Source of the DNA: Dictyostelium discoideum
Lineage: Eukaryota
Assembly: GCA_000004695.1 (NCBI GenBank)
Contig: CM000150.2
Location: forward strand, 3,264,001 to 3,328,000
DNA length: 64,000 nucleotides
Direction of reading: 5' to 3'
Part shown: one piece after another, positions 10,209-58,896 of the stretch
How positions within the stretch are numbered: the first letter of the stretch is position 1
How the letters are laid out: each line of letters starts with the position of its first letter
Position numbers and translations under genes: made by a program
The notes under the pieces: generated by a model
Told to the model about the DNA's origin: nothing
Databases searched by the model: none
Seen by the model: only the letters and a program-made list of their open reading frames with translations

Positions 10209-13152
10209 ATGAGAAAATTAGTAATATTAATTATTTTATCAATTGTGTGTAGTTTATTTATTGGATCGATTGAATCAGTAGATACTAGTAAATTTAAGAC
10301 TTGTAAAGATTCACACTTTTGTAAAAGAAATAGAGTTTCACATGAAGTTGGAGTAATGAATGAAATGAAATCCAAACAAAATTTTAACATTGTAGAAGGT
10401 TCAATTAAATTGGTAAAGCAAGAGAATACCATTTACTTTGATTTACAAGAACAAAATCAAAAGAGTAATCTATTAACAATGAAACTTGAAATCTATGAAG
10501 GAGGTATCGTAAGAATGAGAGCTCAAGAAAAAGAACCATTATTGAATAAGCAACGTTACCAAGTTCAAGATGTTTTATTGGATACAATTAAAACCGTACC
10601 AATTCAATGGAAACAAGAACCTTCAAAACAATCAAACACTTTTTCATTTAAACATGGTGAAAAGGAGTGTTGTTATGTATTAGTACAATTGGTACCATTT
10701 AAATTGGATGTTTACATTATGAATGAATTGGCAATTACAACCAATAGTGATAATCTATTCCATTTCGAACCAATCTCTGATAAACCACAACCATTACCAC
10801 CAAAAGAAAAAAAATCTGAAGAAGAGAATAAAGAAGCTAATCAAGAAGAAGATAATAATAATAATAATAATGATAACAATGAAGAACAACAAGTTAGTAC
10901 AGAAGGTTATTGGGAAGAAAGATTTGGATCACATCAAGATAGTAAACCAAATGGACCAATGTCAATTGGTATGGATTTCACATTTGTTGGTAGTTCACAT
11001 GTTTATGGTATTCCAGAGCATACTACTCGTTTATCATTAAAATCAACCACTGGAAATGGTATCAATGAACAACCATACCGTCTTTACAATTTAGATGTAT
11101 TCGAGTACGAGATTGATAAAACCATGGCATTGTATGGTCATGTTCCATTAATGATCTCTCATGATACTAAAAAAACAGTTGGTGTATTTTGGTTGAATGC
11201 AGCTGAAACATTTGTCGATATCGAGGATGTAACCACACCAGTATCACCATCAAAGAAAACTCATTGGATTAGTGAATCTGGTATTATCGATGTATTCTAT
11301 TTAACTGGTCCAACACCATCAACAATCTTTAAACAATATGCATATCTAACTGGTACAACTGCATTACCACAAATGTTTTCATTGGGTTATCATCAATGTA
11401 AATGGAATTATAAAGTAAGTTACAATAAAAAAAAAAAAAAAAAAAATTATAATAATAATAATAATAATAATAATAATTAATAAAATACTAATATTATTAT
11501 TATTTTTTTTTATTAAAAATTATTAGTCAGAAGATGATGTTAAACAAGTTGATAATGGATTTGATGAAAATCATATTCCATATGATGTAATTTGGTTAGA
11601 TATTGAACATACAGATGGAAAGAGATATTTCACTTGGGATAATAATAATTTCCCAACACCAGCTGATATGCAAAATATTATTGGTGCTAAACATAGAAAG
11701 ATGGTTACAATCGTTGATCCACATATCAAGAGAGATAACAATTATTATGTTCACTCTGAAGCAACTTCAAAAGGTTATTATATAAAGAATAAGGATGGTA
11801 ATGATTATGATGGTTGGTGTTGGCCAGGTTCTTCATCTTATTTGGATTTCACTAATCCAGAGATTCGTAAATGGTGGGCAACTCAATTTGGTTATGATAA
11901 ATACAAAGGTTCAACACCAAATCTTTACATTTGGAATGATATGAATGAACCATCAGTATTCAATGGTCCAGAAGTATCAATGCATAAAGATGCCAAACAT
12001 CATGGTGGTTTCGAACATCGTGACGTTCACAATCTCTATGGTTACTACTATCATATGGCATCGGCCGATGGTTTGGTTCAAAGAAATGCCGATCAAAATG
12101 ACCGTCCATTCGTTTTATCTCGTGCATTCTATGCTGGTTCTCAAAGAATTGGTGCCATTTGGACCGGTGATAACTCTGCCCAATGGTCACATCTCGAAAT
12201 TTCAAATCCAATGCTTTTATCAATGAATTTGGCCGGTATAACATTTAGTGGTGCCGATGTTGGTGGTTTCTTTGGTAATCCAGATGCTGAACTCTTAACT
12301 CGTTGGTATCAAGCTGGTGCATTCCAACCATTTTTTAGAGGTCATGCCCATTTAGATTCACGTCGTCGTGAACCTTGGTTATTCAATGAACCATACACTA
12401 CCATCATTAGAGAGGCAATCGTCAAACGTTACTCTTACCTTCCATTATGGTATACCACTTTCTATCAAAATACACTCAATGGTGCTCCAGTTATGAGACC
12501 ACTTTGGGTTCAATATCCAAAAGAAGCCAATCTCTTTGATGTTGATGATCATTATTTAATTGGTGATTCACTTTTAGTTAAACCAGTCACTCAACAATCT
12601 TGTAAAACTATGAAAGTCCTCTTACCAGGCCAAAGTGTCAATGAAATTTGGTATGATGTTGATACTGAGAAACCAATCAATGCTGGTGTCATCGAAATTG
12701 ATACTCCTTTAGAAAAGATTCCAGTTTATCAACGTGGTGGTTCAATCATTTCAAAGAAAGAAAGAGTTCGTAGAAGTACCTATCAAATGAGAGATGATCC
12801 ATACACTATTCGTATCGCTTTGGACTCTTCAAAATCTGCTCAAGGTCAATTATACATTGATGATGAACACTCTTTTGATTATAAAAAAGGTAAATTCCTC
12901 TACAGACAATTCACTTTCAAAGATAATGTTCTCTCATTTTCTGATGCCTCAAATAAAAGCTCAACCTCTTACAAACCAAATGTTACCATTGAAAAAATCG
13001 TTATCCTTGGTGTTCAAAAACCTCACTCGATCACTTGTAACATTACTGGTAAAGAAAAATTATCATTTGAATATGATTCAACTCTTTCAAAACTAACAAT
13101 CAGAAAACCAGATTTATTAGTTGATACTGATTTTATTATAAAATTAAATTAA
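10209..13152 (+). CDS. modA: Glucosidase II alpha subunit (neutral alpha-glucosidase AB, GH31); 2 exons 10209..11414 and 11527..13152; signal peptide present
   Basis: GH31 signatures 'WNDMNEP' and 'GADVGGF'; near-collinear similarity to GANAB across both exons (e.g. 'DVIWLDIEHTDGKRYFTWD', 'WCWPGSSSYLDFTNPE', 'WYQAGAFQPFFRGHAH', 'PVYQRGGSII'); donor GTAAGT at 11415, acceptor tattag at 11526; symbol modA is by analogy with the Dictyostelium glucosidase II gene. Confidence 0.9.
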
Positions 13153-53006: not shown

Positions 53007-53581
53007 AAATAATTATTATTAGAATTAATCTAATCAGAAATTTTAAAAATAAAAAAAAATAAAAATAAAAATAAAAACAAAAAAAAAAAAAAAGGTATGA
53101 AAACCTGTCACCTGACTATCCTTAAAATTTGATAATTATCTTTGAATAAAAAAAAAAAAAAAAAAAAAAATGGAAAATAATATTAAAAATAATAAAAAAA
53201 ATAATAAATTAAAATTGAACAAAAAAATTTTTTTTTTAAAAATAAAATTTTGTGATTGACTAAATTTAATTATAACAATCAATATATCCATAAACATCAC
53301 AAATAAACGAATCACCAATTCTTAAAATAAAACTTAAAATATCTTTAGTTTATTATTATTATTATTTTTTATTTTATTTTTTTTTTATTTATTTTATTAT
53401 TATTTTTTTTTTTTTCTATCCCCAACTCAAATTAATGAATTATTGACCAGAATTTGTTTTTTTTTTTTTTTTTTTTTGATATTTTTGATCTTTTCATTTT
53501 TTTAATCCTTTTTTTTTTTTTATTTTTTTGAAAAAAAAAGAAAAAAAAAGGTGGAAATTTACATGAAAAAAAGGTGGAAAT

Positions 53582-54816
53582 TTAATGATGTATAGCAGTT
53601 AAATTGGAAGTTGAAGAATGTTTTTGAGATAATAAATTCATTTTGTGTGTGGATGGATTTCTTTTTGTTGGTGTTAAATTACTACTATTATTGGATATTC
53701 CACCACTGCCGCCCAAAGTAGATAAACGTTTTGTTGGAGTTTGAGAATTTGAAATAATTTTGTTGAACGAATTTGGATTGTTTTCAATTGAACCAACAGA
53801 AATATTGTTATTATTATTATTATTGCTATTAATGTTATTATCACAAGAAAAATAACTTAAAAGATTATTTGAACTTGTATTATTACTATTATTATTATTT
53901 TCTTGGTTGGCAATAGTAGAGAAACGTTTTGTTGGAGTTGAAGAACCACTATTATTTACAGAGGGTGAACCAGAGGTAATATTTCTAGTTGGTTTTGGAC
54001 TTGAAGAGATTATTGATAAACGTTTACTTGGTGATAATAAAAGTGATGGCGATGATCTGAATACATCCTTTGATTTTTGTAATTTTGATAAACGTAAATT
54101 TAATGGTGTTGATGGTTGTTGTTGTTGTTGATAAAGTGGTTTTTGTACTTCACTTGATCTTGATAATTGATTATCGAAAACTAAAGATGAATCAAATTCT
54201 TCTTTAAGATCTTTCATAATTAATGAATCAATATCAACATTTTCAATAGTATCAATTTCTGTTGTAGTTGTTGTTGTTGCAATAGCTGTTGGTACTGGTT
54301 CAGTGGCGATTTCAACATTATCAACATTACTATTGATTGTTGGTTCAATTTCAGTAATAATTTCTTCTTTTTCTTCTTCTTTTTCTTCCTCTTTCTCAAC
54401 TTCTTTTTCTTTATCAGAATTATCTTTGATTTCATTTTCTAACATTTCTTTAAATGATAAATATACAGTGGTGTCCTCTTGAATTGGACTTGATGGAATT
54501 GAAATTTGGTTTTGATTCAAAGATTTTGTGAATGGTGATGAACATGTTCCTTCAGTGGTGGTGGTAGTTGTAGTAGTTGTAAAGTTGGCATTATTATTTT
54601 TTAAATTATGAATTGGGGTTCTAGAGATTTTAAGGGAAGGTGATCTTGGATCAAAATTCATTTTAATTGGAGTTCTTGTGAATTTGATTGATGGTGATCT
54701 TGGATCAAATAATAATAATGAAATTTGTTTCTTTGGTTTAATTTGAATTGGTGATCTTTTAAATTTATTATTTGATGGTGATCTTGGATCAATTAATAGA
54801 TTATTATTATTATTAC

Positions 54817-54889
<73 letters not shown>

Positions 54890-55144
54890 TGTGGTATTTT
54901 TAATTTTATTTAATTGAATTGGTGATCTTTTAAATCTATTATTTGATGGTGATCTTGGATCAAAGAAAGCTTGATTACTATAATTTTTTTTAAATGGTGT
55001 TCTTTTAATTGACTTTGATGGTGATCTTGGATCAAACATTTCTATTTTATTTTCATTATTTTTTTCATCACCTCCGATATTATTATTATTATTATCATTT
55101 ATTTCTGAGCCAAAAGAAAGAAATTGTTTTTTAAAAAATTGCAT
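53582..55144 (-). CDS. Low-complexity protein (520 aa) containing six copies of an 'FDPRSPS-x(3-5)-(K/R)-(T/S)-P-I' repeat
   Basis: MFDPRSPSKSIKRTPF, FFDPRSPSNNRFKRSPIQ, LIDPRSPSNNKFKRSPIQ, LFDPRSPSIKFTRTPIK, NFDPRSPSLKISRTPIH in ORF 53582..55144; also acidic EKEEE stretch and S/T-rich C-terminus; ATG at 55144. Confidence 0.55.
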
Positions 55145-55213
55145 TTTTTTTTTTTTTTTTTATTTTTTTATTTTTTTTTTTTATTTATTTATTTTTGTTT
55201 TATTGTACAATTA

Positions 55214-55330
55214 TTTATATTTATATTTATATTTATATTTATATTTATATTTATATTTATATTTATATTAATATTATATTTATATTTATATTTATAGTTA
55301 TGAAAATATATTTATATTTATATCTATCTC
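55214..55330. repeat. (ATATTT)n hexanucleotide microsatellite
   Basis: 'atttatatttatatttatatttatat…' ~18 units. Confidence 0.85.
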
Positions 55331-55945
55331 TATATTTATCTTTATCTTTATATTTATATTATCTTTATCTTTATTAACTTTAAAATTTTAATAATAATAA
55401 TAAAAAAAAAAAAAAAAAAAAATTATTAAATTTAATAATAAAATAATTTATTGCAAAAAAAAAAAAACCCATAATTTTTCCAACAGTTGGCATAAATTTT
55501 CAAAATATTGGCGCGATTGTTTTAAAAAAATCAGGGGAAAAAATAATTTAAATTATTTAAATTGTGAAATTTTAAATGTCACTTTCATAAAAATTTTATA
55601 AGGGTGTTTGTCCATAGTAGGTTGGTGTTTGTCGCCTTTTTTTTTTTTTTTTATAATTTTGTGTATAACAAATTTCTTTGGAAATGCTCGCAGATTTATT
55701 TTTTGAAAAAAAAAAAAAAAAAAAAAAAAAAATTGTTGTGAGCAAATTTGGCAATATTAATATTTACAATTTATGATTTATTTGGATTTAAATAAAAATT
55801 CATTTTTATGTTATTATGTAAAGAATTATTATTTATGTGTGGTTTGAGGTTTATGTACATTTATCAATAATTATTATTATTGTTATTATTATTGTTAATT
55901 ATTGTTATTATTTTAATATTAATTATATTAATTATTAATTATTAT

Positions 55946-57002
55946 TTATTGATTTGAACAACCACTAGGTACTGGAAAACTTGAAGTATCATCTCTTTTT
56001 GGATATCTATCAAGTGTAGCGTAGTGATTTATAGTTTTCTTTCTTCTTTGCATTTCAGTTTCATCTGGATATTCTTTCGTTGGTTCCCATAAACAAATAT
56101 AAGGATCTATACCACTCGTTGCTATACATGGTTCATTTGGATGACATACAACACTATTTACATGTGAATCGTGGCCTTCTAAAATTCTAACGATTTTTGC
56201 AGACTCTTTATCCCAAATAAATAGTTTTGAATCATCTGAACCAGATACTATATATTCGGAATTTGGACCATAAAAATTTACAGATTTAATAGTTTGTTCA
56301 CTAACATGACCAGAATAAACTTGTTTAAATGTTTTTGGTAAAAATGGTTTGGAATTATTCTTTTCACTATCTTGTTGATCTTCTTCATCCTTATCTTCAT
56401 TATCATCGCCATCATCATCACTTTCATTTCCATAATAGCTATCATCACTTTCGTCATCATCATCTTCTTCTTCTTCTTCACCATTATTACTATCATCTTC
56501 GGTTAAATTTTCTTGGTCATTATCGTTATCGTCACTATTATCATCGCCGTCATCATCATCATCATCATCATCTCTTTGTTCAATTAATCTTGCCTCAACT
56601 AAAAGTTGATGATAATAATCAAAAATAAGTGATAGATCTTGTTCATCACTATCAAGTTCATCTTCATAATTAGCAACATTATCATTTTCACTATTATTAT
56701 CATTTTCAAGTTCTTCTTCTTCTTCTTCTTCTTCTTCTTCTTCTTCTTCTTCTTCTTCTTCTTCTTCTCCCTCTTGTTCTTCTTGTTCTTCCTCTTTTTC
56801 TATTTTTTCATTTTCACTATCATTTATTCCATTTTCCTCTTCTTTGTCATCTTTAGTACTCTTATAATCTTTTTCAATTTCTTTCTCCTCTTTATCATCT
56901 TCCTGTTCTTCTTTTTCATTTTTCATTTTAAAATTTGAATCAGAATTATCTGTTTCATCATTTAAGCTGCTAATGGGTGAGGTTGTTGTATTTGGAGGAG
57001 TT

Positions 57003-57075
<73 letters not shown>

Positions 57076-58896
57076 TATTATTGCTACTACTACTACTACT
57101 ATTGCTATTACTACTACCAATACTACTATTACTACAACTACTTAAACTTATATCACTATCTGTTTTTGCTTTTTTCTTATTTCTTCTCTTCTTTTTATTT
57201 AGTTTGCCAATTTTAGTACTTTTGATTGGATTTTCATTTTTATTACTATCAGTATCGGTTTTATTACTTTCATTTGATCCACTATCATTAATACTACCAC
57301 TACTACTATTACTAGTACGACTTACAATACTTGAACTACTATCTCTTCTTGATCCACTATCATTAATACTACCGCCAACACCCCCACTACTACTACTACT
57401 ACTACCACTACGGTGACTACTTCTACCACCACCACTACTACCATTACTACTATTAATATTACGACTATGACCACGTGAATGATTTGATCTTTTCTTTTTC
57501 TTATTTTTATTTTTATTTTGATTTGAATAATCTTTAAAATAATCTAAAGAATATTCTTTTGAATAATTCTTTTTCAAATCATAAAGATAGATATTATCAT
57601 TTAGATAGGTAACGACGATTTCATTACCATTCTTACTGAATGCACAACCAGTGGCTTCATCCTCCGATGGGAAAGGTACCTCTATATTACGATATATATT
57701 TACAAATGATTCACTTGAATGATTTGGTATCATTCTTTGATCGAATAATCTTACCGTTCCATCCGATGATGCTGTAATGAAACTATATCCATCAAATGGG
57801 TGATATTCAACTGAAAATATTGTTGTTTTTGGTATAGATATTGAATATCTAAAACTTCTTCTTAATGGTAATGGATCAAAATTAATTAATAAACTATTAC
57901 CATATTTTATTGGATTTTCATTTAAAGTGGTTTTATTTGTAGTTGTTGTTGTTGTTGTTGTTGATGTTGTTATTGATGAAGAAGGTGAATCTGTTGTTGA
58001 AGTGGATTGTTGTAGTTGTTGTTGAAGTGGTAATGCCATAGTTCTACCTCTACCACCACCAATTACTTGAGGTAGAATTGCTCTATAACCATCATTATTT
58101 GAAGGAGCAGTTTGAATTGGTTGAATTTCCGTATCTTTATATTTTAGTCTAACATCAAAAAGCCTAACTGATCCATCACTAGAAGATGATAAAAATACTT
58201 GTGGTTGAGTTGGACAAACTGATAACTTTAATACTTTTTTACTATGATGTTTATAAACTGTACATTTTTGATTCTCAATATCATAATATCTAATATCCGC
58301 ATCATTTCCACCAGATATAACTTTTCTATTATCATTATTTAAAAAATTGGTTGCAAAAACATTTGTTGAATGTCCACTTTTATTTATTTTTTCAAAAAAA
58401 TAAGAAAAAAAAAAAAGAAAATTATATGTTAATATATCTATACATAATATATATATTATTTTAAAATTCTAATGGTATTACTTACTATAAAGTTGTTAAA
58501 CATTTCCTTTTACCAACATCCCAAATACGAACAGTTTCATCATCACCACCTGAAACAATCAATGATCCATCATCGTTGAAATTAATTGAATTAACACATT
58601 CCTACAAAAAATTTGAAAAGATTTTAAAAAATAAAAAAAAAATAAAGTTAATAATTAATTTTTTTATTTTTTTATTTTTTTGGCAAAAAATGTGTGGTTT
58701 TTTATTTTTTTTTTTATTTTTTATATCTCATTTAATTAAAAATGTTTATACAAACATTATGTCCATGAAGTTCAGTTTTCTCTAGAGTTTCAATGGCATA
58801 ATTTGATTTTGAAAATTCATCTTTTAATTTATTGATACCACTTCGATTTTCTGACAATTCTCTTTCGCATAATAATTGATTGAATTTATTTATCAT
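55946..58896 (-). CDS. DCAF8/WDR42-like WD40 protein (DDB1-CUL4 associated factor family); exons 58756..58896, 58486..58601, 55946..58376; ~895 aa with huge acidic (poly-E/D) and Ser/Asn inserts
   Basis: Collinear with DCAF8: '[12 protein letters not shown]', '[14 protein letters not shown]', '[14 protein letters not shown]', C-terminal '[83 protein letters not shown]'; donors gtttgt (58755), gtaagt (58485); acceptors ttttgtag (58602/3), aaataaaag (58377/8); upstream limit of exon 1 (ATG 58896) uncertain. Confidence 0.75.

Follow-up and report, generated by a model that had tools for sequence, protein, structure and literature searches.

Which kind of protein stands behind an array of repeated, proline-containing units encoded by Dictyostelium discoideum, and what might such an array do in the cell? 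This question is raised by a single, uninterrupted open reading frame (ORF) for a protein of 520 amino acids that lies, amid AT-rich DNA of the Dictyostelium type, at positions 53582..55144 on the minus strand of the window, by which we mean the entire stretch of 64,000 nucleotides analysed here (contig CM000150.2, positions 3,264,001 to 3,328,000; assembly GCA_000004695.1). The initial annotation, made from the sequence alone, had placed this ORF exactly and had correctly seen that it encodes a repeat. It counted six units, regarded them as arrayed minimal sites for cyclin-dependent kinases (CDK) or mitogen-activated protein kinases (MAPK) within a disordered protein, and did not recognise the family. 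As set out below, the gene is DDB_G0269684, and we assign its repeats with high confidence to the CDCA3/Tome-1 family. Taken as a whole, the explanation that we favour, with somewhat better than even confidence, is that DDB_G0269684 encodes a disordered protein of the CDCA3/Tome-1 type whose modules dock, or serve, a phosphatase of the kind that acts on RNA polymerase II's C-terminal domain (CTD).

The protein contains, in its N-terminal third, five exact copies of DPRSPS, with the Asp residue at amino acids 38, 62, 119, 147 and 165, and not the six copies first counted; none of the window's reading frames contains a further DPRSP. What comes closest to a sixth copy, the degenerate segment CSSPFTKS...IPSSPIQ at amino acids 201-222, is kept in close relatives and is different from the DPRSP module. 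At the composition of this protein, DPRSPS would be expected by chance 6e-5 times. The motif had been described as a near-invariant FDPRSPS followed by a basic residue, Ser or Thr, Pro and Ile; its core stands, since both DPRSPS and the basic-Ser/Thr-Pro element are found in all five units, while its edges are looser, with Phe preceding DPRSPS in four copies and Ile in one, and with either Ile or Phe as the last residue. The spacer between DPRSPS and the downstream (K/R)(S/T)P(I/F) measures five residues in units 1, 4 and 5, and six in units 2 and 3.

All five units are read from the minus strand. Unit 1 (FDPRSPSKSIKRTPF, amino acids 37-51), whose DPRSP and R..P residues are invariant in the dictyostelid alignment, is encoded at 54992..55036, and unit 2 (FDPRSPSNNRFKRSPI, amino acids 61-76), with its spacer extended by one residue, at 54917..54964; unit 3 (IDPRSPSNNKFKRSPI, amino acids 118-133) follows at 54746..54793, unit 4 (FDPRSPSIKFTRTPI, amino acids 146-160) at 54665..54709, and unit 5 (FDPRSPSLKISRTPI, amino acids 164-178) at 54611..54655. 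Units 2 and 3 are separated by a poly-Asn linker encoded by an (AAT)n tract on the minus strand (54800..54889; read as 30 copies of ATT on the plus strand), the counterpart of which in D. citrinum is shorter and interrupted. A tandem-repeat finder detected no tandem array of the units at the DNA level. Units 2 and 3 share 93% of their nucleotides, in comparison with 56-80% for all other pairs; the region spanning them (54746-54964), arranged around an expanding microsatellite of 30 codons, suggests that an old array has recently undergone duplication or gene conversion.

To which family does this array belong? A Pfam scan of the 520-residue protein gave no match at E<=10; this null result is uninformative, because Pfam likewise finds nothing in human CDCA3 and in three of four other family members, and only a noise-level match in the fourth. 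When the repeat region was searched as a single sequence against 5.8e9 sequences, five short proteins with the animal-type signature DPRSP[ST]xGIxRTPI were recovered at E values from 2.6e-4 to 4.4e-3, and a profile combining these five with the dictyostelid repeats matched 1158 proteins at E<=10. To guard against circularity, a second profile was built from dictyostelid sequences only and was run exhaustively on 1.84e9 representative proteins. It yielded 342 matches at E<=1e-3, among them proteins of Priapulus (1.5e-11) and Lingula (1.9e-7) that are designated 'CDCA3-like', a protein of Ciona (8.9e-21), and homologues from the choanoflagellate Diaphanoeca grandis (P0012; 5.7e-16) and the amoebozoan Squamamoeba japonica (P0027; 4.4e-15). 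An exact look-up of human CDCA3 (NP_112589.1, CDCA3_HUMAN) located two modules in it, ADPRSPSAGILRTPIQ and SDPRSPTLGIARTPMK, and an hhalign comparison of the five dictyostelid proteins with 13 metazoan CDCA3 proteins, the human one included, gave a probability of 99% and an E value of 6.5e-18. The profile searches and this alignment make the family recognisable as CDCA3/Tome-1, and we are highly confident of this assignment for the repeats. Because the similarity lies entirely in the repeats, we class DDB_G0269684 as a CDCA3-type repeat protein, a family member that has diverged, rather than as an orthologue proven to share the function of Tome-1.

The module itself is tightly defined. Across 128 proteins we collected 388 DPRSP sites, 354 of which have the exact five-residue spacer; the consensus of these 354 units reads Phi-D-P-R-S-P-[ST]-x-x-[IVF]-x-R-[ST]-P-[ILFM], where Phi denotes a hydrophobic residue. 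Seven of its residues (D, P, R, S, P, R and P) show no variation (100% conservation), and the first phosphorylatable position (site 1) is always Ser, whereas the second (site 2) is Thr in 95% of the units outside the dictyostelids and Ser in 55% or Thr in 45% of those within them. Since the module is invariant in dictyostelids, in another amoebozoan, in a choanoflagellate and in animals, these alignments place its origin earlier than the divergence of Amoebozoa and Opisthokonta. By the same comparison, it is the DPRSP...RTP module, rather than the tail with its KEN- and D-box degrons for APC/C (anaphase-promoting complex/cyclosome), that is the functional, ancient core of the family.

Conservation of the repeats in orthologues had been chosen beforehand as a test of their significance, and the repeats are indeed kept in four other dictyostelids. 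The orthologue of D. citrinum, which is also the best full-length match of the 520-residue protein (76% identity by BLASTP), has five DPRSP copies; that of D. purpureum (42%) has six, and those of Tieghemostelium lacteum (34%) and Cavenderia fasciculata (30%) have seven each. At the five module positions common to all five dictyostelid proteins, neither DPRSP nor the downstream R..P varies. Identity to the D. discoideum residue amounts to 74% in the motif columns of this alignment versus 28% in the linkers, and the units are, as far as these columns can tell, conserved linear motifs separated by fast-evolving linkers rather than low-complexity noise.

In what structural setting do these motifs reside? 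The initial annotation had placed the array in a disordered protein and had thought of phospho-regulated docking modules, an idea that we find reasonable. The AlphaFold2 model, calculated from a five-sequence alignment, has a mean predicted local distance difference test (pLDDT) score of 41 and a predicted template modelling (pTM) score of 0.16; no residue reaches a pLDDT of 70, and no domain is formed. Its only substantial helix comprises the 17 residues at amino acids 225-241 (YLSFKEMLENEIKDNSD; 54422..54472, minus strand), which shares the segment SFK..LENEIK with D. citrinum and D. purpureum and is followed by an acidic stretch rich in Glu and Lys; apart from a four-residue N-terminal helix or turn at amino acids 5-8, the model contains no other helix. 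The protein is thus predicted to be disordered over its whole length, in agreement with the description of CDCA3 as an intrinsically disordered protein (PMC9926468).

The presence of two Ser/Thr-Pro sites per unit, which had been pointed out initially, holds true for each of the five units and gives ten sites in all. One may consequently ask whether the DDB_G0269684 protein is simply a generic multisite substrate of CDK or MAPK, in which clustered Ser/Thr-Pro sites tune the bulk charge of a disordered region and neither a dedicated reader nor a dedicated phosphatase is involved. The predicted disorder of the protein fits such a role, as does the P-R-S-P (P-x-S-P) context of the first site in all five units, and three of the ten sites (S41, T49 and T158) satisfy the full CDK consensus [ST]Px[KR]; moreover, human CDCA3 is described as a phospho-regulated cell-cycle protein (PMC9926468). 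In these respects, that is, in disorder, in the number of Ser/Thr-Pro sites and in the arraying of several suboptimal sites, the protein resembles CDK-regulated disordered proteins of the Sic1/p27 type, from which it differs in having no kinase-inhibitory domain, no cyclin-docking motif and no sequence relationship. Specifically, [RK]xL[FLIVM] has no match in the 520 residues, and only a single loose [RK]xLx[FLIVM] occurs, at amino acid 374. What speaks against a generic substrate is the constraint on the module itself. Seven invariant and two hydrophobic positions, together with a fixed five-residue spacer, are maintained from amoebae to humans, which is unlike clusters that tune bulk charge, and CDK phosphodegron clusters are far less constrained; furthermore, the strict Ser at site 1 and the 95% Thr at site 2 in non-dictyostelids argue for site-specific recognition. 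The minimal CDK/MAPK consensus is consequently not a sufficient description of the repeat: it accounts neither for the invariant D, P and R nor for the fixed spacing or the two hydrophobic positions. Because the seven invariant positions, the two hydrophobic ones and the fixed spacing exceed any kinase consensus, we infer a specific reader or enzyme, and we regard the generic-substrate explanation as rather unlikely.

If the module has a dedicated reader, which protein could this be? We propose that each unit would act as a bipartite, two-site, proline-directed phospho-switch that is written by a kinase of the CDK or MAPK type. Its first half, P-x-S-P-S with the invariant Ser, would imitate the Ser5 site in the CTD of RNA polymerase II (S-P-T-S-P-S) and would be recognised by an SCP/CTDSP-type, Asp-based phosphatase of the FCP family via a pocket for the Pro residue at position -2. 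The array would then form a multivalent docking site or scaffold and, at the same time, a preferred substrate, or it might alternatively serve as a competitive sink; in either case its state would be set by proline-directed kinases. The candidate reader in Dictyostelium would be a CTD phosphatase of the SCP/FCP type. We advance phosphatase docking as the mechanism of the module tentatively, as an analogy-based possibility to which we give somewhat less than even weight.

Several lines of background point in this direction. The P-x-pS-P context is common to other substrates of SCP phosphatases, namely REST, the Smad linker and Myc at S62. Large human interactome maps reportedly link CDCA3 with CTDSP1, CTDSP2 and CTDSPL, and human CDCA3 is presumably phosphorylated at S29, S31, T37, S68 and T76, positions that fall inside its two modules. 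CDCA3 has been named as a protein that binds SCP1/CTDSP1 and is a candidate for dephosphorylation by it (Kim and Bahk, 2014, by way of PMC7281111 and PMC6594944). Scp1 is reported to bind the CTD segment Ser2-Pro3-Thr4-pSer5, whose Pro3 sits in a hydrophobic pocket and determines the specificity (PMC4350670; PMC11011526), and FcpA of D. discoideum is described as a putative CTD phosphatase (PMC1888708). This Scp1-type determinant, a Pro at -2 of P-x-S-P, is present in five of the five units (P-R-S-P) as a sequence match only. When the module is laid against the CTD heptad YSPTSPS, the substrate of SCP1/CTDSP, D-P-R-S-P-S agrees with S2-P3-T4-S5-P6-S7 at P3, S5, P6 and S7, and both proteins present their sites as a multivalent array in a disordered region. 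The repeat protein differs from the CTD in that it has no heptad periodicity; its units are 15-16 residues long and are connected by linkers of variable length. The comparison would therefore describe a functional analogy and not membership in a common family.

A broader version of the phosphatase-docking proposal would hold that the module is an ancient motif, older than the split of Amoebozoa and Opisthokonta, that provides high-affinity SCP/CTDSP docking by Ser5 mimicry, and that CDCA3-like proteins in general might be kinase-controlled scaffolds, or 'sponges', which, by titration, withdraw phosphatases from the CTD and from other substrates. We consider this generalisation doubtful.

How well does the combined explanation, a CDCA3/Tome-1-type protein whose modules engage a CTD-type phosphatase, withstand the evidence that weighs against it? 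A first group of such findings concerns the relationship to animal CDCA3. The hhalign similarity is confined to the repeat region, and the C-terminal halves of the dictyostelid and animal proteins have no similarity to one another (hhalign E 0.8); neither a KEN box nor RxxL occurs in the 520 residues; and a start with Met-Gly (MG), found in 165 of 233 DPRSP proteins including those of Squamamoeba and Diaphanoeca, is lacking in every dictyostelid member. As a result of this restriction of similarity to the repeats and of the missing MG start, KEN and RxxL elements, full orthology of DDB_G0269684 to CDCA3 must, on the sequence comparison, be called unproven. The same findings would be accounted for if the two proteins were not homologous at all and a short linear motif had arisen independently in each of them for the same conserved partner, and the lability of the repeat number (2-7 copies), with units 2 and 3 as a recent duplication, would also suit convergence. 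However, the Squamamoeba and choanoflagellate proteins keep both the MG start and the N-terminal array and thereby bridge dictyostelids and animals; the layout of an N-terminal array, an acidic middle and a basic, Ser/Thr-Pro-rich tail is common to the proteins; a C-terminal SPTKRLS is shared by the choanoflagellate and Dictyostelium proteins; and for two lineages to arrive independently at 15 motif residues in identical spacing would be much to ask. We accordingly judge convergence to be improbable. As Squamamoeba and Diaphanoeca keep it, the MG start was probably lost in the dictyostelids.

The second group concerns the docking mechanism. The link between SCP1 and CDCA3 rests on secondary citations, and in these sources the DPRSP module is not stated to be the contact. 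The invariant Asp and Arg residues and the second, R-[ST]-P half of the module have no counterpart in the CTD, and its two sites are eight residues apart and not seven. A profile search of the PDB with the repeat profile gave no match at E<=10, and hence no structure of a family member. With regard to cell-cycle-regulated (G2/M) expression as a trait of the family, DDB_G0269684 does not occur in the part of Table S2 of PMC3386910 (RblA-repressed S/M-phase genes) that the analysis covered, an absence that does not refute such regulation. Finally, in the part of the PMC6397043 tables that was covered, none of the phosphosites of the protein lies in a repeat; because of this coverage, and because the tryptic peptides that carry the ten Ser/Thr-Pro sites of the repeats are only 4-8 residues long, the missing sites are weak evidence. 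Phosphorylation had been anticipated for the array; what is found is a protein phosphorylated in vivo, with the sites listed (S330, S364 and S480) all located outside the repeats (PMC6397043). S330 and S364 are invariant in dictyostelids, the former inside an invariant S-R-S-S-E block, and they are R-x or Arg-adjacent sites and not Ser-Pro sites. Among the sites listed in a further phosphoproteome (PMC12785797), there is nothing for DDB_G0269684.

Beyond the module, the resemblance between DDB_G0269684 and CDCA3 is one of general architecture. Both carry N-terminal arrays of the signature Phi-DPRSP[ST]-x2-Phi-x-R[ST]P-Phi, in 2-5 copies in animals and in five in DDB_G0269684; both are predicted to be disordered, have no Pfam domain and proceed from an acidic middle to a basic tail rich in Ser/Thr-Pro. 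In contrast, the Dictyostelium protein has twice the length; missing from it are the blocks PKxLF and RSPL...SPRxLxQxKQ and the terminal D[KQ]EN of animals, and it possesses conserved blocks of its own, LQKSKDVFRSSPSL and [ST]P[ST]KR[LF]S. At site 2, dictyostelids have Ser or Thr, as opposed to nearly always Thr in animals. A conserved NQEN at amino acids 412-415 bears a faint resemblance to the DQEN of crustaceans. A correspondence that had been matched by eye between C-terminal segments of the Dictyostelium protein (KDVF/RSSPSL/SPSKRL) and of CDCA3 (KxLF/RSPL/SPRxL) was rejected, as it has no statistical support (hhalign E 0.8).

These architectural differences bear on the function under which human CDCA3 is known in the literature, that of Tome-1, which is itself subject to destruction by APC/C-Cdh1, as an F-box-like, Wee1-targeting component of an SCF (Skp1-Cullin-F-box) ubiquitin ligase (PMC9926468). 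Transferred to Dictyostelium, the repeats would bind the substrate or Skp1, and it is the case that they are the only part common to DDB_G0269684 and CDCA3. The Dictyostelium protein has no F-box detectable by Pfam, a weak objection since human CDCA3 likewise gives no Pfam match; with neither a KEN box nor an RxxL degron, it also has nothing that resembles the C-terminal degron region. We hold an adaptor function of this kind to be quite improbable.

Could the array, instead of engaging a phosphatase, dock another phospho-reader, for instance a Pin1-type WW domain, Cks, an FHA domain, 14-3-3 or PP2A-B55? Phosphorylated Ser/Thr-Pro is the minimal Pin1 site, and the 95% Thr at site 2 of animal units would generally suit readers or phosphatases specific for phospho-Thr. 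Yet Ser occupies site 2 in more than half of the dictyostelid units, a situation that readers restricted to phospho-Thr could not tolerate, and our literature search found no link to any of these proteins. All in all, such a reader appears very unlikely. The consensus for Cks calls for a hydrophobic residue or Pro at -2 of phospho-Thr-Pro, and Cks-type readers were set aside because site 2 of the module has its hydrophobic residue at -3 and not at -2, and because dictyostelids often have Ser there.

CDCA3/Tome-1 is widely used as a marker of proliferation and cancer, and little is known of how it works biochemically. The literature scarcely discusses the best-conserved part of CDCA3, the DPRSP...RTP module, and our literature search found no discussion of this module in connection with CDCA3. 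With the assignment made here, an 'unknown' gene of a haploid and genetically tractable organism gains a family, and its five-copy array offers a means for finding the reader of the module. Should the reading of the array as a phosphatase sponge be true, CDCA3/Tome-1 would be recast from an F-box-like adaptor to a regulator of phosphatases, for which DDB_G0269684 would be a tractable model.

The identity of the ORF with DDB_G0269684 rests on three phosphosite windows of 13 residues each, DNQLSRSSEVQKP (S330), SKDVFRSSPSLLL (S364) and LSTLGGSGGISNN (S480), that agree with our translation in both sequence and numbering (supplement of PMC6397043; Nichols et al., 2019). In that supplement the gene is labelled 'unknown' and is placed on chromosome 1 with its start at 3317582 (PMC6397043), which makes the window a part of D. 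discoideum chromosome 1. The annotated gene and the ORF agree at these three windows, and thus up to residue 480; together with the orthologues, they mark 53582..55144 (minus strand) as a complete single-exon gene for a CDCA3-like protein with the N-terminus MQFFKKQ. Our literature search found no mention of DDB_G0269684 in the text of papers. The exact 520-residue sequence (53585-55144, minus strand) has no identical entry in a collection of 15 billion proteins; either the D. discoideum protein is absent from this collection, or the deposited version differs, for instance in the length of its poly-Asn tract.

The C-terminal half contains features that are conserved in their own right. Invariant in dictyostelids are S328, S330 and E332, the segment L355-K357 and F362-R-S-S-P366. 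The latter two are part of a nearly invariant block, RLSKLQKSKDVFRSSPSL (amino acids 351-368; 54041..54094, minus strand), in which L355, Q356, K357 and F362-P366 do not vary. Further downstream, four [ST]P[ST]KR motifs (amino acids 371, 403, 469 and 491; 53660..54034, minus strand) that are conserved in D. citrinum and D. purpureum make up a second repeat at amino acids 371-495. Three of the four extend to KR[LF]S (SPSKRLS, TPTKRFS and TPTKRLS), so that a proline-directed site stands beside a basophilic KRxS site, and a near-identical SPTKRLS is found in the choanoflagellate homologue from Diaphanoeca grandis (P0012).

Some features of the homologues deserve mention as separate observations. 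The starts of the proteins from Squamamoeba japonica (P0027) and Diaphanoeca grandis (P0012) are of the MGxxxS type that is typical of N-myristoylated proteins. SCP1 has been reported to undergo palmitoylation and to reside at the plasma membrane (PMC5404917), and by analogy a shared localisation of these homologues and SCP1 is possible. In metazoan CDCA3 proteins, the first DPRSP is closely preceded by an [RK]-x-L-like element (NRRILTL, HRRIV and, in the human protein, NKHLARV), which is present in addition to their conserved PKxLF; both elements resemble cyclin-docking (Cy/RxL) motifs, and the Dictyostelium protein has neither.

At the 3' end of the ORF, a direct duplication of 23 bp (AAAAAAAGGTGGAAATTTAATG, two copies with a 95% match; 53543-53588) abuts or overlaps the stop codon and the end of the coding region; the last residues read ...NLTAIHH in D. 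discoideum and ...NLTIYH in D. citrinum. Upstream of DDB_G0269684, the intergenic region towards a WD40 gene at 55946-58039 harbours a microsatellite of about 27 copies of the hexamer TATTTA (55212-55374). The neighbouring genes encode this WD40 protein, SDA1, ITFG2, a fucokinase/pyrophosphorylase-like protein, a GH31 protein and an RsmB/NOP2-type methyltransferase; they are unremarkable housekeeping genes that seem to have nothing to do with the repeat protein. The GH31 glycoside hydrolase is encoded on the plus strand (10209-13152) by two adjoining ORFs, of which the first corresponds to an N-terminal mutarotase-like domain and the second to the TIM barrel and the C-terminal domains, and which presumably represent one gene split by a short intron.

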